DNA from: Smithella sp. | GTDB taxonomy: Bacteria; Desulfobacterota; Syntrophia; Syntrophales; Smithellaceae | Direction of reading: 5' to 3' | Assembly: GCA_012510495.1 (NCBI GenBank) | Contig: JAAZHX010000216.1 | Span: 22-64,021, forward strand | Length of the DNA: 64,000 bases | Shown here: positions 2,438 to 40,833 of the stretch, in pieces | Numbering within the stretch: position 1 is the first letter of the stretch | Layout of the letters: each line of letters opens with the position of its first letter | Position numbers and translations under genes: made by a program | Notes under the pieces: model-generated | Database searches by the model: none | Told to the model about the DNA's origin: nothing | Seen by the model: only the letters and a program-made list of their open reading frames with translations

Positions 2438-3280
2438 ATGCTTCAGCAGGAAATGATCGAACGCTTCAGAGATGCTTGTCATGAGGATGCACGAATAATC
2501 GCAGCTTTGATGTTCGGCTCATTTGCTACCGGAGAGGGTGACGCGTTCTCTGATATCGAATTCGCGGTGTTCATTCAAGATGATTCATTTGAGAGCTTCG
2601 AGCAGCACTCGTGGCTTAATGCAGTCAGTCCGGTTGCGGCTTACTTTCCGGACGACTTCGGCCACTATACAGCACTTTTTGAGAACGGCATTCGCGGTGA
2701 ATTCCACTTCATGCGCAAATCGGACATACCGATTATTTCCACATGGCAAGGCTACGGATGGTTTCCCTCGCTCGATGCGGCTGTTTTGCTGGACCGATCC
2801 GGCGAGCTGTCACAATACGCGAGTGCCCTTGTGGGCGGTCCTCCGATACGTGAAGGCGCGCCGCTTGTAGAAGGGATCGTATTGAATCTCATCAGTCTGA
2901 TGCTCTTTGGCGCCAATCTTCTCAATCGGGGAGAGCATGCCCGCGCATGGGCTTTGCTGAGCAAAGCCCATGAAAACCTGCTCAAGCTGGTTCGCCTCCA
3001 CGAAGGGTCGACAGACCACTGGCCGACGCCTTCGCGCGCGCTGGAAAAGGATCTTTCCGCGGTTGCGTATAATCGCTACCTGGCATGCACAGCCGGCGCA
3101 GAATCAAGAGCGCTATACGCGGCCTATCGCGAGTCGTGGCAGTGGAGTCTCGAATTGTTCAAGAGTGTTGCGGTACCTCTGAACATTGAACTTCCGACAA
3201 CGGTGATTAAGCAGGTGCAAAGGTTGCTCAATGATTCCGATGCGCCGTACAACAAGGGCATTCAGCCGACAAGCCGGTGA
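2438..3280 (+). CDS. Pol-beta-fold nucleotidyltransferase, Lnu(F)/LinF-like lincosamide/aminoglycoside NTase family
   Basis: NTase signature MFGSFATGEGDAFSDIEF (G-S...D-x-E). About 280 aa with a helical C-terminal domain. GGAGG lies 5 nt upstream of the ATG at 2438. The stop is inside attC D. Family-level call only. Confidence 0.7.
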   Translation: MLQQEMIERFRDACHEDARIIAALMFGSFATGEGDAFSDIEFAVFIQDDSFESFEQHSWLNAVSPVAAYFPDDFGHYTALFENGIRGEFHFMRKSDIPIISTWQGYGWFPSLDAAVLLDRSGELSQYASALVGGPPIREGAPLVEGIVLNLISLMLFGANLLNRGEHARAWALLSKAHENLLKLVRLHEGSTDHWPTPSRALEKDLSAVAYNRYLACTAGAESRALYAAYRESWQWSLELFKSVAVPLNIELPTTVIKQVQRLLNDSDAPYNKGIQPTSR

Positions 3281-32794: not shown

Positions 32795-32824
32795 TTGACA
32801 TCCGCCGGCGAATGCCGTTATAAA
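32795..32824 (+). promoter_or_regulatory. Sigma-70-like promoter
   Basis: TTGACA, 18-nt spacer, TATAAA, upstream of the 32861 ATG. Confidence 0.45.
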
Positions 32825-32860
32825 GAAACATCATATCTTTCAAACTGGAAACGCGCCGTC

Positions 32861-34312
32861 ATGGATTGGGTCAACGCCGCTGCATCCGTCATCAAGAACA
32901 TACGAATTCAGGACATCCTGGACATGGCGATTATCGCCGGGATGATTTTCGCCCTCTCGATGTGGTTCAAAACCAGGGCGTCGCGATTTGTCCTGATCGG
33001 CATCCTGCTTCTTGGCGGCGTATATCTGGCCGCCCGGTTTTTTCAGCTTTATCTTACCGTGATTGTGCTCCAGGGGTTTTTTGCCATTTTGCTGTTCGTG
33101 CTGGTAGTGATCTTTCAGGAAGACCTGCGCGGCTTCTTTGAGCGCATCGCCATGCTCGGGGCGCTGCACAAGGAGACACCGCCCCTGTCCCGGCTGGAAA
33201 AAACCGCGGAGGTTATCGCGGAAACCGCAGGCAATCTTGCCAAGAAGCGCGTCGGCGCTCTGATGGTCATCCAGGGAAATGATCCGCTGGACCGTCATTT
33301 GACCGGCGGCGTTGCTTTGCACGGTGCCGTCAGTGGACCGCTTCTGGAAAGCCTTTTCGATCCCCATTCCCCGGGTCACGACGGGGCGGTGGTTCTCAAG
33401 GATGACCGCGTGGCGATGTTCGGCTGTCATTTGCCCCTGTCCGTTAATACCGCCCGGCGTGGAAACATGGGCCTGCGCCACACGGCCGCACTGGGGCTGA
33501 CGGAGCGCTCGGACGCCTTGTGCGTTGTCGTGTCCGAAGAGCGCGGCAGCATCTCCGTTTCCGAGGGAGAGTCGCTTTCCGTCGTCCCCGGCGCTTCGAC
33601 GCTTCACGAGGTCCTGGAGCAGTATTACGCAAAATACCGGCCCGCGCCGCAAAAAAGGCCTGTCTGGGCCTGGATTCGCGAAAACACAAAGGAAAAACTG
33701 ATCGCCGTCGGCCTGGCCTGTTTGTTGTGGGCGACCTTCGGCTATCAGCGGGATACGGTGCGCCGCGACTTTTTCGTTCCCCTCGAGTATAAAAATCTGC
33801 CGGCCGGCTGGCAGCTTGACGAACCGCAGATCAAGGACATCAGGTTGACCCTGCAGGGGCCCGAACAGGCCTTCCGGCTGATGAATGAGGATTCGCTGAA
33901 GCTCTCCCTGGATTTGTCCGGGCTGACCCTGAGAAAACAGGAGTTTCCCCTGACCCGGGACATGGCAAACGCGCCACCGGGCTTGTCGATTGCCAAGATC
34001 AGCCCCGCCAATGTCAAGGTTTTCGCGTCACAGCAGGTTGACGCGCATCTGCCGGTCCACGTCGCAACGGTCAACCGGCTGCCGGATCATCTGGTCCTGC
34101 AGAAAATATCCGTGAAACCGGCCGCGCTCCCGGTGAAGCTGAACCCCCGGATGAATCCCGGCGGCATGCGGCTGGAAACGGAGCCGGTCGATTTGCAAAA
34201 CATCACTTCCTCCGTGACGACGACGCTGAAGGTCAACGCCGTTCCCGGAGCTTCTTTCCCGGATGGAAAATCCGCGCAGGTCCGGGTGATTGTCCGCGTC
34301 ACAAAGAAATAA
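32861..34312 (+). CDS. cdaA: Diadenylate cyclase CdaA fused to YbbR/CdaR-like repeats
   Basis: Three N-terminal TM helices. DAC domain motifs (HDGAVVL, GLRHTAALGLTE, VVVSEERGSIS). A roughly 200-aa YbbR-like beta-rich C-terminus. Confidence 0.8.
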   Translation: MDWVNAAASVIKNIRIQDILDMAIIAGMIFALSMWFKTRASRFVLIGILLLGGVYLAARFFQLYLTVIVLQGFFAILLFVLVVIFQEDLRGFFERIAMLGALHKETPPLSRLEKTAEVIAETAGNLAKKRVGALMVIQGNDPLDRHLTGGVALHGAVSGPLLESLFDPHSPGHDGAVVLKDDRVAMFGCHLPLSVNTARRGNMGLRHTAALGLTERSDALCVVVSEERGSISVSEGESLSVVPGASTLHEVLEQYYAKYRPAPQKRPVWAWIRENTKEKLIAVGLACLLWATFGYQRDTVRRDFFVPLEYKNLPAGWQLDEPQIKDIRLTLQGPEQAFRLMNEDSLKLSLDLSGLTLRKQEFPLTRDMANAPPGLSIAKISPANVKVFASQQVDAHLPVHVATVNRLPDHLVLQKISVKPAALPVKLNPRMNPGGMRLETEPVDLQNITSSVTTTLKVNAVPGASFPDGKSAQVRVIVRVTKK

Positions 34313-35840: not shown

Positions 35841-37190
35841 TTAGTTTTTCAAATCGTATTTCTTCAGCTTGTACCGAAGCATTCTTTCCGACATGCCCAA
35901 AGATTCCGCGGCTTTGGTCTGGTTGTCGGCTGCCTTTACCAGGGCTTCGCCAATCAGGCGCTTTTCCAGCTCTTCGACGGAATCCCGCAGCGTGCCAGCC
36001 GGCGCCCCGGAAAAAGAACCGTACTGAAAGGGTAAATCGCTTACGGTGATATAGTCGTTGCGGGCGATAACGACGGCCCGTTCCATGATGTTGACCAGTT
36101 CCCGGATATTGCCCGGATAGTCGTATTTCAAAAGCAAATCCCTGGCCTCCGCGGTGATGCCCTTGAAACTCTTCGCGTTTTCCAGGGAAAATTTTTCCAG
36201 ATAATGATTCAAGAGCGCCGGCAGATCTTCCTTTCTTTCCCGAAGCGGCGGAAGGGACATGGCCACCACTTTCAACCGGTAAAAAAGATCCTCGCGGAAG
36301 GCCCCCTCCCGGACACGCGCCTCCAGATCGCGGTTGGTGGCGCTGATGATCCGGACGTCCACGGAAATGCTGGCATTGCTGCCGAGACGCGAAAATTCTT
36401 TCTCCTGCAAAAACCGCAAGAGTTTCACCTGAATGGCGGGACTCAGCTCGCCGATTTCGTCCAAGAAAAGCGTGCCGCCGTCCGCCTCTTCGAAGCGGCC
36501 GATGCGCCGTGAACCGGCGCCGGTGTAAGCGCCCTTTTCGTGGCCGAACAGTTCGCTCTCCAGCAGATTTTCCTGCAGGGCGCCGCAGTTCACCACGACA
36601 ATGGGCCTGGAAGCCCGCGGACTCAACTGATGAATCAGCCTCGCCAGAAGCTCCTTGCCCGTGCCGCTTTCCCCTGAAATCAGCACGGTGGCCCGGCTGG
36701 GCGCAACGCGGCTGGCCATGTTCATCAGCTCCACCATGCCGGCGCTTTGGTAAATGATTTTTTCCGCAGTGACGCCGGTCTTGCCCAGTTCCTGTTTCAG
36801 AAGATCATTTTCACGGATCAGCCCGCGGCGCTCCGCCACGCGGTCCACGAGAATCAGCAGCTCCTCCAGTTCAATCGGTTTCGTGATATAATCCACGGCC
36901 CCCGCCTTGATCGCCTCCACGGCGGTTTCGATGGTTCCGTACGCGGTGATGATCACGACATCGATCTCGTGATTGATTCTTTTTACTTCCTTGAGAACGG
37001 CCAGCCCGTCCATGCCGGGCATTTTGTAATCCAGAAGGATCAGGTCATAATGATGGCTGGCGACCATTGTAACCGCCTCTTCGCCATTTTCCGCCTCCAT
37101 GACCCGGTGCCCTTCGGAAATGAGAAAATCCCGAAGCATTTCCCGCTGGGATCGGCCGTCTTCCACAATCAGGATATGTAATTTCGACAT
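35841..37190 (-). CDS. Sigma-54-dependent response regulator (NtrC/AtoC family)
   Basis: REC domain (DLILLDYKMPGMDG), AAA+ domain with GESGTGKE and GAFTGA-like GAYTGA, ESELFGHEKG, and a C-terminal Fis-type HTH. Confidence 0.9.
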   Translation of the reverse strand: MSKLHILIVEDGRSQREMLRDFLISEGHRVMEAENGEEAVTMVASHHYDLILLDYKMPGMDGLAVLKEVKRINHEIDVVIITAYGTIETAVEAIKAGAVDYITKPIELEELLILVDRVAERRGLIRENDLLKQELGKTGVTAEKIIYQSAGMVELMNMASRVAPSRATVLISGESGTGKELLARLIHQLSPRASRPIVVVNCGALQENLLESELFGHEKGAYTGAGSRRIGRFEEADGGTLFLDEIGELSPAIQVKLLRFLQEKEFSRLGSNASISVDVRIISATNRDLEARVREGAFREDLFYRLKVVAMSLPPLRERKEDLPALLNHYLEKFSLENAKSFKGITAEARDLLLKYDYPGNIRELVNIMERAVVIARNDYITVSDLPFQYGSFSGAPAGTLRDSVEELEKRLIGEALVKAADNQTKAAESLGMSERMLRYKLKKYDLKN

Positions 37191-37209: not shown

Positions 37210-39015
37210 TCAGGTTTTGTCGCTTATTTTTTCGACCGGCAGCACAATTTCAAACGTGGTTCCCTCACCCGGGCGGCTGATCACGCGAACGTCGCCGCCG
37301 TGGCCGCGGATAATCTCCGCGGCCAGAGGAATGCCCAGCCCCAGGCCTTTTTCCTTGGTCGTGTATTCCGGACTGAAAACTTTTTCGATTTCCTCCGGAG
37401 TCATGCCGCAGCCAGTGTCCGCGATGCTTACCAAAACGTGTTTTTTGCCCTCCCGGCTGACGGTAATGGTGATTTTGCCCCGGTCGCCGATGGATTCCAT
37501 GGCGTTTTTCATAAAGTTTAAAAAGGCCTGCTGGAGCTTATTGATGTCCATGGGAATGACGGCGGGGAAGAGCCGCCACCCGGTTTCCAGCGTAATGTTT
37601 CTCGAAGCCGCTTCTTCCGACATCAGATGGACAATTTTTTGCAGAACTTCCGTTACGGAGAAATTGCTCAATTCCAACCTTCTGCTCTTGGAAAAAGAAA
37701 GAAACTCTTCGATGATCCCGTTGAGACGGCGGATTTCATCGCGGATGACCGTAGAAAGATTTGTAAATTCCCGGGCCTTTACGGCATCCGGGGGAATGAA
37801 ATCTCTTTTCAGACGCTGAGTCGCCATGCTGATGGCGTTGAGCGGATTGCGTATTTCGTGCGCCACCCCCGCGGCCAATTGCCCCAGAGAAGAAAGCCGT
37901 TCCGCTTTTTCCAGCCGGCGCTCCATGTCGATAATACCTGCCAGATGCCGGTTCTGATCATGGTAGAGCAGCCACATGGACAAAAGAGCGATGCCGGCGA
38001 CAAACAGCATGAAAATAAAAATATTCTTCCGGTTTTCGGCAATAATCTTGTCCATGGAGCCGCGGTCCAGGCCGATGCGGACAATCCCGGCGATCTTTTC
38101 TTTTGGCAGGTAGGGGTTTTCCATGATGAAGGGGGCGGCCACATCCAGAATCTTGATTCCCTGCCGGTCCACCTTCCTGCTGAGAATTCTTTTTTTCCCT
38201 TTTGTCATTTCCTGATCATTGAGATCCCTGCTGGTCAAGCCGGCCGGTAATTCTCCGCTATTCCCCAGCAGGATTTTCTGATCATTGAAAACTTGCAGGT
38301 AAGTAATGCCGTGGCCTTCGCCCATTTTGCTCATGGCCCTTTCGACGGCGACTTTCAGGCTCCAGTACAGTCTGCCCTGCCGGTCCAGGCAGAAGACGGC
38401 AATCCCGCCTCCTCCCCCGAGCTTCATGCCGACGTAGCCGATGTCCTGTTTGATGCGGATTTTTTCCAGCAATTCAATAGTTGTAGCCTTACGCCCCTTG
38501 ACGGTCAAATCGCTTTTCGGCAGCATGTCGGTTTTCAGGGGACCGCTCTGATAAAGGAGATCACCGCGCATATTCAGAATGGCCACGTACCAAAAATTAT
38601 TATGGGCCGCAAACTCGCGAAGGTAGTCGTTGCTCAGCAATTTCTTTTTCCACTGTTCGTCGATTTGCTGCCCCAGTTTGGTGATGGCATCGTAAACCAG
38701 CTGGATGGAATAGGCGGATTCCGCTTCTTTGGCGGTTTTGAGATGCGACGGCATTTTCCCTTTGGCGGCGGCGATGCTTTTCAGATTATCTTCCGTCTGG
38801 CGCAAAAGGACGCTGATGGTAGTCAGGGCCTGATCTTCCATAAATCCGACCAGGTTGGTTTCGTTACGACGAATATCCAGATAGCCCATCACCAGAATCA
38901 GAGCGACCAGGATTGCCGACACAATACCGACAGCCAGCGGTTGAAGAAAATTTCCGTTATACGAATGTGCGCCACGCCGGGTGATTGTTTTCGTTTTTTG
39001 AAAAAGCAACATCAT
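37210..39015 (-). CDS. Sensor histidine kinase with a large periplasmic domain
   Basis: Two TM segments flank a roughly 300-aa extracytoplasmic region. H-box AHEIRNPL. N/G boxes (DTGCGM, GLGLGI). Confidence 0.85.
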   Translation of the reverse strand: MMLLFQKTKTITRRGAHSYNGNFLQPLAVGIVSAILVALILVMGYLDIRRNETNLVGFMEDQALTTISVLLRQTEDNLKSIAAAKGKMPSHLKTAKEAESAYSIQLVYDAITKLGQQIDEQWKKKLLSNDYLREFAAHNNFWYVAILNMRGDLLYQSGPLKTDMLPKSDLTVKGRKATTIELLEKIRIKQDIGYVGMKLGGGGGIAVFCLDRQGRLYWSLKVAVERAMSKMGEGHGITYLQVFNDQKILLGNSGELPAGLTSRDLNDQEMTKGKKRILSRKVDRQGIKILDVAAPFIMENPYLPKEKIAGIVRIGLDRGSMDKIIAENRKNIFIFMLFVAGIALLSMWLLYHDQNRHLAGIIDMERRLEKAERLSSLGQLAAGVAHEIRNPLNAISMATQRLKRDFIPPDAVKAREFTNLSTVIRDEIRRLNGIIEEFLSFSKSRRLELSNFSVTEVLQKIVHLMSEEAASRNITLETGWRLFPAVIPMDINKLQQAFLNFMKNAMESIGDRGKITITVSREGKKHVLVSIADTGCGMTPEEIEKVFSPEYTTKEKGLGLGIPLAAEIIRGHGGDVRVISRPGEGTTFEIVLPVEKISDKT

Positions 39016-39192
39016 ATCCTTGTTTTACAAAAATTTAACGGACGCTTCTTCACTGTCATGGACACTTGCCGAGCATCATCGGGTTTTTTCCTGTAAAAGT
39101 CAACGATAAATGAAGGCAAAAACCGACATTTTTGTCGAAAGATGACAAAAAATGTATCCAGCCTATCTGCTTGTTATTATTCGATTAAATTG

Positions 39193-39218
39193 ATGTCGAA
39201 CCAAAACCGGTTCGACAT
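39193..39218. promoter_or_regulatory. Palindromic candidate enhancer (UAS) for the adjacent NtrC-type regulator
   Basis: ATGTCGAACC-aaaacc-GGTTCGACAT has 10-bp perfect arms, centred about 110 nt upstream of the -24 element. A related CGACAttttTGTCG lies at 39124-39137. Confidence 0.4.
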
Positions 39219-39313
39219 TTTTACCGAATCCGCCGGATCGCAGACGGGGAGGCAAACGGGGCTTATTCGTTAAAAGTCTTTTATATCAATAACTTACGAT
39301 TCGATTCCTACTC

Positions 39314-39329
39314 TGGCACAGTATCTGCT
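39314..39329 (+). promoter_or_regulatory. Sigma-54 (-24/-12) promoter
   Basis: TGGCACagtatCTGCTT has GG and GC separated by exactly 10 nt, matching TGGCAC-N5-TTGCW at all key positions. Confidence 0.55.
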
Positions 39330-39339
39330 TCATAATGGT

Positions 39340-39470
39340 TCAGAAAAAGGAATAGTGTCGACTAAAATATTACGGGCATGATTAGCCGACAGCAAAATAA
39401 CCAGAGAAGGCAACCAAGCCTTCACTCTTCTCTCCTGACGGGAGGCTCTCAACCAGCCTCCCGTTTTTTA
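39340..39470 (+). ncRNA. Candidate sigma-54-dependent small RNA (about 130 nt)
   Basis: Bounded by the sigma-54 promoter and an intrinsic terminator whose U-tract is on this strand. It has no credible ORF. It contains the C/U-rich stretch CCUUCACUCUUCUCUCCU (anti-SD-like) just 5' of the terminator. Confidence 0.45.
39438..39470 (+). terminator. Rho-independent terminator
   Basis: ACGGGAGGCT-ctcaacc-AGCCTCCCGT followed by TTTTTTATTTTTT. Confidence 0.7.
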
Positions 39471-39474
39471 TTTT

Positions 39475-40833
39475 TTATTCCTCCGATCCCTTCTTTGCTT
39501 CGGTTTTCCGGCGCCGCCATTCGGCGATTCTCTCTTTGATGATTTTTTCGTATCCGGCCTCGGTCGGAGAGTAGAGCACTTTTCCCTGGAGCTTATCCGG
39601 AAAATACTCCTGCGGAACATAGGCATCGGAATAGTCGTGCGCGTATTTGTAGTCTTTGCCGTAGGCCAGATCCTTCATCAGTTTGGTCGGAGCGTTGCGG
39701 ATGTGCAGGGGAACGGGAAGATATCCGGTTTTGTTAATTAAGTCCCTGGTTTGTCCGTAGCCGGTGTACAGAGAGTTGCTTTTGGGCGCCACAGCCAGAT
39801 AAACGGCCGCCTGCGCGATGGCCAGCTCGCCTTCCGGCAGGCCGATGAAATGAAACGCCTGCTGGGCAGCCATCGTCAGCACCAAGGCATGGGGATCGGC
39901 GTTGCCGATATCTTCGGAGGCAAAACGCACCATGCGCCGCAGAATGTAAAGCGGGTCCTCTCCGGCGGCCAGCATGCGGCCCAGCCAGTAAAGGGTTGCG
40001 TCCGGATCGCTTCCGCGCATGCTTTTATGAAAGGCCGAAATCAGGTTGTAATGCTCCTCTCCGTCCTTGTCGTATAGAAGGGCTTTTTTCAGCAGCGCCT
40101 CTTCGGCGGATTTCGCCGTGATCGTTCGTTCCTCCCCGGGCAGCGACTGGACCATCGAGGCCGCCGCCTCCAGGTTGTTCAAGGCCGTTCGGGCGTCGCC
40201 GTCGGAAATCCCGACGATAAACTGTAAGGCTTCATCGTCGATTTGAATGGCGAATTCACCCAACCCCCTTTGCGGATCGGAAAGCGCGCGCTTCAGGATG
40301 GCCATCAGGTCTTCTTCCGTGAACTGTTTGAGCAGCATCACGCGCGTTCTGGACAAAAGCGGCGCGATGACTTCAAAAGAGGGATTTTCCGTGGTTGCGC
40401 CGATCAGCGTGATCAATCCGCTTTCCACGTGCGGCAGGAAAGCGTCCTGCTGGGCTTTGTTGAAGCGGTGGATTTCATCGACAAACAAAATGGTTTTCCG
40501 CTTTTTGGCTTCCCAGAGATCCCGGGCGTCGTCAATCACCTGCCGGATTTCCCTGACCCCGGAAAGGACGGCGGAAAAACTGATAAAGCAGGCTTTGGTT
40601 TCATTTGCCAGGATTCTGGCCAGCGTGGTTTTCCCGGAGCCGGGCGGCCCCCAGAAAATCATCGAAAAAAGTTTGTCCTCCGCGATGGAGCGCCTCAGCA
40701 GCGTCCCCTCGCCGACCAGGTGCGGCTGACCGATGTAATCGGCGAGCGCAAGCGGCCTCATTCTTTCGGCCAGCGGCGCAGTGTCCAATGCGTCATCCGG
40801 AGTTCTCTGGCTGAATAAATCCAGATTTTTCAT
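39475..40833 (-). CDS. rarA: Replication-associated recombination protein A (AAA+ ATPase)
   Basis: Walker A GPPGSGKTT, Walker B LFVDEIHRFNK, and the MgsA C-terminal domain (HYNLISAFHKSMRGSDPDA). Confidence 0.9.
   Translation of the reverse strand: MKNLDLFSQRTPDDALDTAPLAERMRPLALADYIGQPHLVGEGTLLRRSIAEDKLFSMIFWGPPGSGKTTLARILANETKACFISFSAVLSGVREIRQVIDDARDLWEAKKRKTILFVDEIHRFNKAQQDAFLPHVESGLITLIGATTENPSFEVIAPLLSRTRVMLLKQFTEEDLMAILKRALSDPQRGLGEFAIQIDDEALQFIVGISDGDARTALNNLEAAASMVQSLPGEERTITAKSAEEALLKKALLYDKDGEEHYNLISAFHKSMRGSDPDATLYWLGRMLAAGEDPLYILRRMVRFASEDIGNADPHALVLTMAAQQAFHFIGLPEGELAIAQAAVYLAVAPKSNSLYTGYGQTRDLINKTGYLPVPLHIRNAPTKLMKDLAYGKDYKYAHDYSDAYVPQEYFPDKLQGKVLYSPTEAGYEKIIKERIAEWRRRKTEAKKGSEE

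Follow-up and report, generated by a model that had tools for sequence, protein, structure and literature searches.

A conserved small RNA gene with a sigma-54-type promoter beside a two-component operon in Smithella and related Syntrophales

The locus and its protein-coding neighbors

The region described here lies within a 64-kb stretch of Smithella sp. DNA (64,000 nucleotides, termed the window), in which 459 nt separate the start of a sensor kinase gene from the stop codon of rarA. An initial annotation, made from the sequence alone, had delimited this gap and placed in it regulator half-sites, a sigma-54 promoter, and a small RNA (sRNA) with its terminator. The gap is confirmed at 39016-39474, and all of the elements are found where they had been placed or at most 1–2 nt away. 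The genes and features of the locus are as follows.

35841-37190, minus strand: response regulator and bacterial enhancer-binding protein (EBP), 449 aa (Pfam Response_reg, Sigma54_activat, AAA_lid_14, HTH_8)
37210-39015, minus strand: sensor histidine kinase, 601 aa (Pfam HisKA and HATPase_c)
39016-39474: intergenic gap of 459 nt between the kinase gene and the MgsA/RarA gene
39075-39103, minus strand: sigma-70-like promoter of the kinase-regulator operon, TTGACT-17-GATGAT (consensus scan)
39124-39137, strand not applicable: UAS1, a palindromic predicted regulator site, CGACA-N4-TGTCG (consensus TCGACAtTTTTGTCGAA)
39193-39202, strand not applicable: left arm of a palindrome, ATGTCGAACC, genome-specific and unconserved
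39213-39226, strand not applicable: UAS2, a second, imperfect predicted regulator site (window CGACAtttttACCG, consensus CGACAtTTaTTGCCG)
39284-39296, plus strand: IHF-like site TATCAATAACTTA (WATCAA-N4-TTR), between UAS2 and the promoter
39314-39329, plus strand: sigma-54 (-24/-12) promoter TGGCACagtatcTGCT, TGGCAC-N5-CTGCT, the sole match in the 64-kb window
39340-39470, plus strand: small non-coding RNA gene of ~130 nt (covariance model and conservation)
39356-39391, plus strand: stem-loop SL1, stem UGUCGACU/AGCCGACA with a 20-nt loop
39406-39423, plus strand: hairpin SL2, GAAGGC-loop-GCCUUC (structural alignment)
39424-39437, plus strand: unpaired C/U-rich linker ACUCUUCUCUCCUG, anti-Shine-Dalgarno, with a near-invariant CUCUUC
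39437-39469, plus strand: intrinsic terminator, an 11-bp G+C-rich stem with a 7-nt loop and a U-run (consensus scan)
39475-40833, minus strand: MgsA/RarA (rarA), convergent with the sRNA gene

The kinase has two hydrophobic, predicted transmembrane segments around an extracytoplasmic domain of ~285 aa, as judged by hydropathy analysis. This sensor region has no sequence match in Pfam or PDB. In an AlphaFold model of the kinase (pLDDT 77), the sensor domain gives weak Foldseek matches (E ~1e-4, TM 0.2-0.4) to TlpA, DctB, KinD, and dCache domains, and may thus resemble a tandem-PDC/double-Cache fold.

The regulator, which had been called NtrC-type, is a complete EBP. It contains a receiver, an AAA+ sigma-54 activator domain with an intact GAYTGA loop at residue 220, and a Fis-type helix-turn-helix (HTH) whose recognition helix is SERMLRYKLKKY; the Sigma54_activat match scores 241 bits in Pfam and is accompanied by HTH_8. 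Its best NCBIfam matches are AtoC and ZraR, both far under cut-off, and neither kinase nor regulator reaches an NCBIfam equivalog cut-off that would give the system a name. The predicted promoter of the operon lies ~20 bp from UAS1 and is kept as TTGAC...TAAGAT across loci, with a mean pairwise identity of 77%.

Regulator sites and sigma-54 promoter

The control region of the sRNA gene contains two predicted regulator sites at nearly fixed distances from the promoter. UAS1, first noticed as a half-site repeat, has the form CGACA-N4-TGTCG and lies ~190 bp upstream of the -24 element, at a position that is constant in nearly all loci. UAS2 lies ~100 bp upstream of the same element, at a constant position of about -103. 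A perfect palindrome, ATGTCGAACC-N6-GGTTCGACAT, had been described at 39193-39218; it is present in the window, but is conserved only in its right arm, which forms part of UAS2. The left arm is missing in the closest relative, locus L001, and in every other locus compared. Across 72 loci, mean pairwise identity is 85% for UAS1, 83% for UAS2, 74% for the promoter, and 86% for SL1, and it is 37–46% in the spacers and 30% in the region past the terminator. The IHF-like site is recognizable by its core, CAA-N4-TTR, which occurs at a constant offset (-28/-27) in 45/72 loci compared to 0-5/72 in control windows; the full consensus is found in 27/72.

The near-consensus -24/-12 promoter of the initial annotation is found at 39314-39329, directly upstream of the RNA and with the correct GG-to-GC spacing (10 bp). 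The pattern TGGCAY-N6-TGCW has 1 match in the 64-kb window compared to 0.45 expected by chance, so that the match is not significant by itself and the evidence lies in its conservation. The GG and TGC of the -24/-12 elements are invariant in 72/72 aligned loci, and the promoter is found in all of the ~100 metagenomic copies that have upstream sequence. Transcription from this promoter would be expected to depend on RpoN. The initial annotation had made its proposal depend on conservation of the promoter and the terminator in related genomes, and both are conserved.

The regulator is linked to the upstream sites by sequence co-variation between its recognition helix and the half-sites. A helix with SE is paired with CGACA/TGTCG sites in ~100 loci, while a helix with TR is paired with GGACA/TGTCC sites in L004 and L011, which belong to different kinase/regulator sub-clades. 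UAS1 becomes GGACA/TGTCC only where the helix changes from SE to TR. UAS2 reads GGACA in L004, and the UAS2 position is also GGACA in L011, although the site-pattern scan missed that locus. The sRNA gene is very probably switched on by the adjoining sensor/regulator pair, and the module includes a natural, testable specificity swap between recognition helix and DNA site. A genome scan with the 17-mer UAS1 listed mostly chance matches in unrelated phyla and cannot define a regulon.

The RNA, its structure, and its mode of action

The 5′ end of the sRNA is placed by promoter geometry and the 3′ end by the U-run of the terminator. A covariance model scores 123.5 bits at 39340-39470; there is no second copy in the 64-kb window, where the next match reaches at most 14 bits. 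Homologs occupy the same place in 71/77 kinase-anchored loci, and the sRNA is found in 92 genome stretches and 101 metagenome stretches, or ~190 copies from genomes and metagenomes of Smithellaceae, nearly all of the compared sequences coming from metagenome-assembled genomes. The order kinase-regulator, sRNA, rarA is nearly universal among these copies. Genome, metagenome, and kinase-alignment scans all limit the family to Syntrophales, and no transcript-like short contigs are seen among the metagenome matches. One orphan copy (L135) has its own sigma-54 promoter and lies away from both the kinase and rarA. At another locus, L322, a rewired copy occurs with a c-di-GMP riboswitch.

The conserved structure consists of three helices, in which 97–98% of alignment cells are paired compared to 31–62% when the partners are slid. 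SL1 is paired in 99% of cells, and its loop holds the near-invariant ACGGGCAUG at 39372-39380, complementary in sequence to the context of a start codon. In the deeper set of sequences, 4/8 SL1 pairs have compensatory changes, such as AUCGGUUAA/UUAACCGAU in L374. SL2 is found in Smithellaceae and in L300-type relatives, with a compensatory variant GGAGGG/CCCUCC in L300 and L338, and it is missing from the short forms of the Syntrophus type. The annotated intrinsic terminator with its U-tract on the same strand is present and conserved: its stem spans 39437-39465, after which a T-run, found on the plus strand only, extends to 39469, and compensatory changes affect 6/7 counted pairs in two independent sets. 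Wobble counts (61 G-U cells compared to 18 A-C cells) favor the plus strand, and an RNA from the opposite strand was rejected.

Two features of this block could also be expected of a DNA-level regulatory sequence rather than an independent RNA gene. The TGTCG/CGACA pentamers of the upstream sites recur in the SL1 arms, and the terminator is only 5 nt from the rarA stop codon; the block might provide extra regulator sites (TGTCGAC...GCCGACA) for rarA or the kinase operon, or act on the opposite strand as a 3′ element of rarA. This is very improbable. Where the upstream sites switch to GGACA/TGTCC in L004 and L011, the internal TGTCGAC/GCCGACA is unchanged, and deeper relatives alter the arm sequence yet retain the pairing, as in the L374 variant. 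The wobble counts and the confinement of the T-run both point to the plus strand, and the orphan L135 copy retains its own sigma-54 promoter apart from either flanking gene.

It had been suggested that the transcript has no plausible ORF, and no conserved ORF is found on either strand of the sRNA region across the aligned members. In the window copy, a frame does open at the ATG of the SL1 loop and runs for 31 codons without a stop to the end of the extracted sRNA. This ATG is gone in many members (CAUAA), the longest ORF varies from 8 to 42 codons without a common frame, and indel lengths are not divisible by three. A leader of a downstream gene would have to contend with a following gene that is convergent in nearly all loci, and the conserved terminator argues against both a leader and a small-protein mRNA, which together are the least credible of the readings, at the edge of what need be entertained.

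The sequence had not been recognized by the initial annotation, and an Rfam scan of the whole window at gathering thresholds agrees with this, since no family matches, Qrr and GlmY/GlmZ included. A scan of 38950-39550 at E values up to 10 also gives no Qrr or GlmY/GlmZ match; matches to LhrC and Plastid-psbJ-3 at E ~1-3 are noise. No published description of this sRNA was found in a literature search, nor any earlier description of a regulatory RNA in Smithella or its relatives in the literature searched. By sequence comparison, the family is an undescribed one that is well conserved in syntrophic Smithella-type bacteria and sits where relatives have an envelope-stress protein gene (see the next section). 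It would be suitable as an addition to Rfam. In digesters, oil reservoirs, and peat, Smithella and its relatives have a key role in the syntrophic degradation of alkanes and fatty acids, and they can hardly be cultivated.

The sRNA most likely pairs with the start-codon and ribosome-binding regions of mRNAs and thereby blocks their translation. The exposed pyrimidine stretch that had been proposed to pair with Shine-Dalgarno regions is unpaired over ACUCUUCUCUCCUG (39424-39437), but its first five bases, CCUUC, belong to the 3′ arm of SL2. Relatives of the Syntrophus type retain only the ACGGGCAUG-loop hairpin and the anti-Shine-Dalgarno CCUCCUG. In distant relatives, CCUCCUG occupies the position of the linker, immediately before the terminator, and the retention of this exact motif strengthens the case for pairing with Shine-Dalgarno regions. 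Hfq-dependent base-pairing would be in line with the U-run of the terminator and with the single-stranded A-rich and C/U-rich segments.

Within the 64-kb window, sequences complementary to the SL1 loop or to the C/U linker occur no more often than in shuffled sequences, and none of the 441 candidate start regions covered by a duplex-energy scan does better than shuffled seeds. A 7-nt match to the 5′ leader of the kinase, noticed by eye, was dropped because it is unconserved in other loci. The lack of an above-chance target site in the window would also fit a genuine, sigma-54-dependent RNA that works in some way other than base-pairing. Such an RNA could bind or sequester a protein that recognizes the invariant ACGGGCAUG loop, or sponge another RNA, and it is in keeping with this that conservation is highest in a hairpin loop and not in a 5′ single-stranded seed. 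This alternative is unlikely, though less so than the coding or DNA-level ones. As its second conserved motif, the sRNA has an exact anti-Shine-Dalgarno sequence, retained even in the short forms, and such motifs are typical of translation-blocking sRNAs; moreover, a 64-kb window is too small for its target search to weigh against base-pairing. Repeated GGA-in-loop motifs of the CsrB/RsmZ type are absent, the GGA triplets being in stems, and a CsrB-like sponge was rejected for this reason.

The proposed circuit and its relation to known systems

Orthologous two-component systems occur in Syntrophobacteraceae, Desulfosoma, and Desulfobacterales, where the same sites and promoter lie upstream of a ZraP/CpxP-like gene (Metal_resist/LTXXQ). 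This gene is divergent at the orthologous loci L276, L375, L379, L381, and L382. The kinase of these systems can be aligned over its full length with 33% identity, the regulator reaches 59%, and the recognition helix is unchanged; in the kinase-alignment genome scan, generic kinase-domain matches dominate, with ~10 full-length relatives among the matches listed. No Metal_resist/LTXXQ gene is found in the window or in loci L001-L265, and the window has the sRNA at that place. Most likely, then, the local output of the circuit became an sRNA in Syntrophales. That the same cassette drives either a ZraP/CpxP-like protein or an sRNA makes this a clean case of output replacement in a two-component system, and the comparison with sister lineages hints at the purpose of the sRNA. 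Since the divergent gene that orthologs control from these same DNA sites encodes a ZraP/CpxP-like periplasmic protein, the circuit most likely responds to envelope or periplasmic stress. As the ZraS/ZraR equivalog cut-offs are not reached, this reading is based on the output genes of relatives and not on the sensor.

In the zinc-associated envelope stress response of enterobacteria, ZraR drives the divergent, sigma-54-dependent zraP from a shared intergenic region (PMC4987338). The window has a comparable arrangement, with an operon of a kinase and a sigma-54 EBP, a divergent sigma-54 promoter, and regulator sites in the shared intergenic region, but its divergent gene encodes an sRNA instead of ZraP. 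The proteins also differ from ZraS and ZraR: the kinase scores 199 bits compared to a cut-off of 479, with the kinase core alone matching, the regulator scores 450 bits compared to a cut-off of 760, and the sensor domain is larger and Cache-like. In addition, the promoter of the kinase operon is sigma-70-like and not sigma-54. The sRNA is most likely the translation-blocking output of a ZraSR-like envelope-stress sensor.

In the Cpx envelope stress response, an LTXXQ-family periplasmic protein and the sRNA CpxQ are both effectors (PMC4817254). Likewise, an LTXXQ-family protein and an sRNA both occur as predicted outputs of two-component systems of the window type. CpxQ arises by cleavage from the 3′UTR of the cpxP mRNA and depends on a promoter under sigma-70/CpxR control. 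The window sRNA differs in having its own sigma-54 promoter and no nearby LTXXQ gene. A CpxQ-like origin from an LTXXQ 3′UTR was rejected, as the 3′UTRs of five LTXXQ genes contain no sRNA-like element.

In the proposed circuit, the membrane kinase would sense an extracytoplasmic signal, presumably one of envelope stress, through its double-Cache-like domain and phosphorylate the NtrC-type regulator. The regulator would then bind UAS1 and UAS2, and a DNA bend at the IHF-like site would help it to activate sigma-54 RNA polymerase at 39314-39329. The ~130-nt transcript, stopping at the intrinsic terminator, would expose two unpaired conserved motifs, ACGGGCAUG in the SL1 loop and the C/U-rich anti-Shine-Dalgarno before the terminator. 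Both would pair with target mRNAs around the start codon and the ribosome-binding region, resulting in a translation block. That 39340-39470 on the plus strand is, in this full sense, a Smithellaceae trans-acting sRNA gene under the adjoining sigma-54 two-component circuit is considered probable. The sensor, regulator, DNA sites, promoter, and RNA make up a whole module that is predictable from sequence and is available in ~190 natural variants.

A more far-reaching version can be put forward only tentatively. Here, Syntrophales would have swapped the ZraP/CpxP-like chaperone of a ZraSR/ZraP-type envelope-stress system for a riboregulator, in which the anti-start-codon loop ACGGGCAUG and CCUCCUG jointly clamp the ribosome-binding sites of envelope-protein mRNAs. 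The response would then be wholly post-transcriptional, and the switch from SE/CGACA to TR/GGACA and the L135 and L322 copies would reflect ongoing rewiring of the module.

The layout had been likened to EBP-controlled sRNAs of the Qrr and GlmY types, and this arrangement of promoter, upstream sites, EBP, and terminator is recovered without an Rfam match. Vibrio Qrr1, an sRNA of quorum sensing that acts on the translation of mRNAs, is divergent from the gene of its own NtrC-type regulator, LuxO; it has a sigma-54 promoter and upstream regulator sites and folds into several hairpins, with an intrinsic terminator (PMC3730234 and PMC8043402, for instance). The window sRNA is similar in being divergent from its own NtrC-type regulator and in its sigma-54 promoter, upstream sites, length (~100-130 nt), hairpins, and terminator. 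It differs in matching Rfam Qrr neither in sequence nor in structure, in its CGACA-N4-TGTCG regulator sites, and in being single copy per locus, and it is partnered by an operon of the classical kinase-regulator kind, whose sensor is extracytoplasmic, and not by a phosphorelay.

GlmY/GlmZ of enterobacteria are controlled by GlrK-GlrR (QseE-QseF), a two-component EBP system, from sigma-54 promoters with upstream TGTC-N10-GACA (PMC4987338). The window shares with them a two-component EBP, a sigma-54 promoter, and upstream inverted repeats at an sRNA gene, but its sRNA has no Rfam match, its half-sites are arranged differently, and its regulator scores 353 bits compared to the GlrR cut-off of 763. 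GlmY takes part in amino-sugar control, through protein mimicry and sequestration.

Several EBPs of Desulfovibrio vulgaris also target adjoining ncRNA genes, as in DVU0679 with Dv_sRNA2, and likewise DVU0653, DVU1419, and DVU2359 (PMC3333781, PMC4641369). These ncRNAs, compared here by their published description, lie downstream of the regulator gene, unlike the window sRNA. They share with it the same phylum-level group and the presence of an ncRNA gene alongside a sigma-54 response regulator.

Conservation of the kinase-rarA gap

The window genome is of Smithella type (Smithellaceae, Syntrophales), and the nearest relatives of its kinase all come from such MAGs. The gap between the kinase and rarA contains every element listed in the initial annotation, namely half-sites, a palindrome, a -24/-12 promoter and a plus-strand terminator.

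Predicted features of the gap and its flanks (window positions)
35841-37190, minus: regulator after the kinase, Response_reg + Sigma54_activat + HTH_8, 449 aa
37210-39015, minus: histidine kinase, HisKA/HATPase, 601 aa
39016-39474: gap from kinase start to rarA stop codon, 459 nt
39103 to 39075, strand opposite to the sRNA: conserved sigma-70-like promoter of the kinase operon, TTGACT-17-GATGAT, adjoining UAS1
39124-39137: UAS1 (first regulator site), CGACA-N4-TGTCG
39193-39218: palindrome of the initial annotation, ATGTCGAACC-N6-GGTTCGACAT
39213-39226: UAS2 (second regulator site)
39314-39329: -24/-12 promoter, TGGCAC-N5-CTGCT
39340-39470, plus: candidate sRNA, about 130 nt
39424-39437: C/U linker, pyrimidine-rich anti-Shine-Dalgarno stretch
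39437-39465, plus: intrinsic terminator stem, T-run to 39469
39475-40833, minus: MgsA/RarA, whose stop codon bounds the gap

The -24/-12 pattern occurs once in 64 kb against 0.45 occurrences expected by chance, so that reading a single genome could not decide the matter. Comparison, on the other hand, shows that the gap probably contains an RNA gene in its own right, with a promoter of sigma-54 type. By blastn (query 39300-39475), the same element is found in 71 of 77 kinase-anchored loci, in every case on the strand opposite to the kinase and some 300-450 nt upstream of its start. The core pattern GTCGACT-N5-12-ACGGGYRTRAYTRGCCG matched 92 stretches in a set of 185,579 species genomes, every one from Smithella, Smithellaceae, Syntrophaceae, Syntrophales or delta-proteobacterial MAGs except for one short ‘Gammaproteobacteria’-binned contig, and a further 101 stretches in metagenomes. 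Across these loci, nearly all of them from MAGs, the gene order of kinase-regulator, element and convergent rarA is nearly universal. The exceptional contig (‘uncultured Gammaproteobacteria’, CAYMDW010000031.1, 3.9 kb) is probably mis-binned; its locus (L088, 3403-3874, minus) has an sRNA of the typical Smithellaceae type, with three upstream sites instead of the usual two.

Conservation across the sRNA locus is not uniform but is concentrated in islands.

Mean pairwise identity by segment
UAS1: 85%
UAS2: 83%
IHF-like site: 63%
-24/-12 promoter: 74%
SL1 (sRNA hairpin 1): 86%
SL2 (sRNA hairpin 2): 72%
C/U linker: 75%
Terminator: 69%
Spacers: 37-46%
First ~20 transcribed nt: 38%
After the terminator: 30%

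Promoter and terminator, on whose conservation the initial annotation had made its reading depend, are both kept in related genomes: the promoter GG and TGC are without variation in 72/72 sequences, and the terminator carries two-sided pair changes.

Structure and possible action of the RNA

Comparison likewise shows a conserved predicted fold with two conserved unpaired motifs. RNAalifold predicts three helices from 64 distinct sequences, in which 97.4% of pairs are standard, compared to 31-60% when partners are slid, and eight pairs show two-sided changes, six of these in the terminator. In an independent set of 100 metagenomic matches, none of which was used in model building, the values are 98.0% and 33-62%. 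Within Smithellaceae, variation in SL1 and SL2 is mostly G-U wobble. In distant relatives, SL1 pairing is kept despite altered stem sequence (e.g. AUCGGUUAA/UUAACCGAU), which brings the compensatory pairs of SL1 to 4/8, and SL2 changes from GAAGG/CCUUC to GGAGGG/CCCUCC. Paired columns contain 61 G-U cells compared to 18 A-C cells, and this identifies the RNA strand. It had been proposed that the transcript has no plausible ORF, and no conserved one is found: the longest measures 8 to 42 codons across members, the frame is not common to them, and the loop ATG is frequently lost.

The covariance model finds a single copy in the window (123.5 bits). An Rfam scan, suggested in the initial annotation, matched no family, in keeping with its view that the sRNA is not a recognised one, and no description was found in the searchable literature.

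The anti-Shine-Dalgarno stretch would pair with ribosome-binding regions and thereby block translation, and the anti-AUG loop perhaps also pairs there. The two motifs come in the order expected for pairing with an mRNA whose Shine-Dalgarno sequence is upstream of AUG, but the spacer in the sRNA is far longer than that between Shine-Dalgarno and AUG. Alternatively, the invariant loop possibly binds a protein. No targets of the sRNA were found within the 64-kb window.

An orphan paralog without SL2 and without the canonical upstream sites lies at 2807-3000 (minus) of PHBK01000033.1 (L135), in a MAG that also has a canonical copy (L152/L037). It features its own sigma-54-type promoter TGGCATTATATATGCT, SL1, C/U linker and terminator, with no kinase, regulator or rarA nearby.

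Upstream sites and regulator specificity

Comparison also ties the predicted enhancer architecture to the adjacent regulator. The first conserved site, TCGACAtTTTTGTCGAA, occupies a fixed position at about -190 from the promoter, and the second, CGACAtTTaTTGCCG, at about -103. The right arm of the perfect palindrome described in the initial annotation is part of this second site, while its left arm is unconserved, making the palindrome peculiar to the window genome. The interval from the second site to the promoter contains an IHF-like motif, TATCAATAACTTA. Its core keeps a constant offset in 45/72 loci, compared to 0-5/72 in control windows.

The AAA+ domain of the regulator is complete, GAYTGA loop included. 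The Fis-type recognition helix is LGMSERMLRYKL in about 100 loci, all with CGACA/TGTCG sites, and LGMTRRMLRYKL in L004 (on a contig common with L137) and L011. Exactly in these two loci, UAS1 reads GGACA/TGTCC, and GGACA is also the start of the second site. This switch, helix SERM to TRRM alongside site CGACA/TGTCG to GGACA/TGTCC, occurs in different kinase/regulator sub-clades as judged by full-length identity, and the L011 MAG also contains a locus of the SERM/CGACA type (L024). The TGTCGAC/GCCGACA repeats inside the RNA are unaltered in both loci, which argues against their being DNA sites and suggests that they act as an RNA stem.

In the interval 39075-39138, some 20 bp separate UAS1 from the -35 element of the sigma-70-like kinase-regulator promoter downstream of it, so that the regulator may also act on its own operon.

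In a Smithella MAG that also holds canonical locus L147, a second contig (CAYMWM010000214.1, ~650-1010, minus; L322) carries a copied UAS1/UAS2/IHF region with a degenerate canonical promoter; here a new TTGGCATAATTCATGCT precedes a c-di-GMP-I riboswitch (RF01051, 70 bits, 672-762, minus) in place of the sRNA. Either rewiring of a regulon member or a chimeric assembly could explain this contig.

Outputs in relatives and known systems

Scans of the wider family with the UAS1 17-mer and the kinase alignment sampled, rather than mapped, the spread of output types. Among the matches listed, two-component relatives outside Smithellaceae have a common layout: a palindrome, a second site ~90 bp on and a sigma-54 promoter ~100 bp further, divergent from the kinase-regulator pair. 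Their predicted output differs by lineage. Other Syntrophales (L300, L320, L338) have a diverged sRNA, while L374, L376 (Syntrophus sp.) and L380 have a short form retaining only the SL1 hairpin with its ACGGGCAUG loop and CCUCCUG directly before the terminator. In Desulfobacterales (L276), Syntrophobacteraceae (L375, L382), Desulfosoma (L379) and Desulfobacteraceae (L381), a Metal_resist/LTXXQ signal-peptide protein gene directly follows the promoter. ZraP, CpxP and Spy are members of these families. The alignment of the L276 kinase with that of the window runs end to end and takes in the sensor domain (33% identity over 608 aa), and the L276 regulator is 59% identical with an identical recognition helix. 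The window and the Smithellaceae loci examined contain no Metal_resist/LTXXQ gene.

Downstream of the sigma-54 promoter, two more two-component relatives (L377, L395) lack the standard sRNA as well as an LTXXQ gene and have different short non-coding stretches containing CCUCCU motifs; that of L395, AACGGGUAAUUAG then CCCUCCUGUUUUU, may be a minimal sRNA form. The 5′UTR leader of the L375 LTXXQ gene has GAUGGGCGGCAUGUUUUGAACCGAGG, faintly like the L300-type SL1 region AAUGGGCAUGUUGAGCCGAU, a single case that could be chance. L376 has a 153-aa ORF ~180 nt past the sRNA terminator on the same strand, with a signal-peptide-like N-terminus and without the LTXXQ sequence motif.

Qrr, with LuxO, is a known sRNA controlled by sigma-54 and an enhancer-binding protein (EBP). 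GlmY/GlmZ with GlrR are also of this kind (PMC4987338), and in Desulfovibrio several EBP-controlled ncRNAs adjoin their regulator genes (PMC3333781, PMC4641369). The window sRNA would belong to this established kind and matches none of its curated families.

Enterobacterial ZraR drives the divergent sigma-54 promoters of zraSR and zraP, the latter encoding a periplasmic chaperone that belongs to the envelope stress response (PMC4987338), and the effectors of the Cpx response include an sRNA, CpxQ, as well as an LTXXQ protein, CpxP (PMC4817254). Given these precedents and the LTXXQ outputs in relatives, the window system is read, by architecture, as a ZraSR-like module in which an sRNA would have replaced the protein effector in Syntrophales. 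Membership in ZraSR itself was rejected, as the system falls short of the curated ZraS/ZraR scores. The sensor domain of the window kinase (~285 aa) differs from that of ZraSR; no sequence family was found for it, and its AlphaFold model (pLDDT 77) has a weak likeness to tandem-PDC/double-Cache sensors. What this locus adds is deep comparative support, a natural switch in regulator/site specificity, and an apparent alternation of protein and sRNA at one conserved cassette.

Elsewhere in the window, a 505-aa ORF (32795-34312, plus) contains CdaA_N, DAC (diadenylate cyclase) and YbbR domains in one frame. This looks like a fusion of diadenylate cyclase with its YbbR-type partner, which are usually encoded separately.
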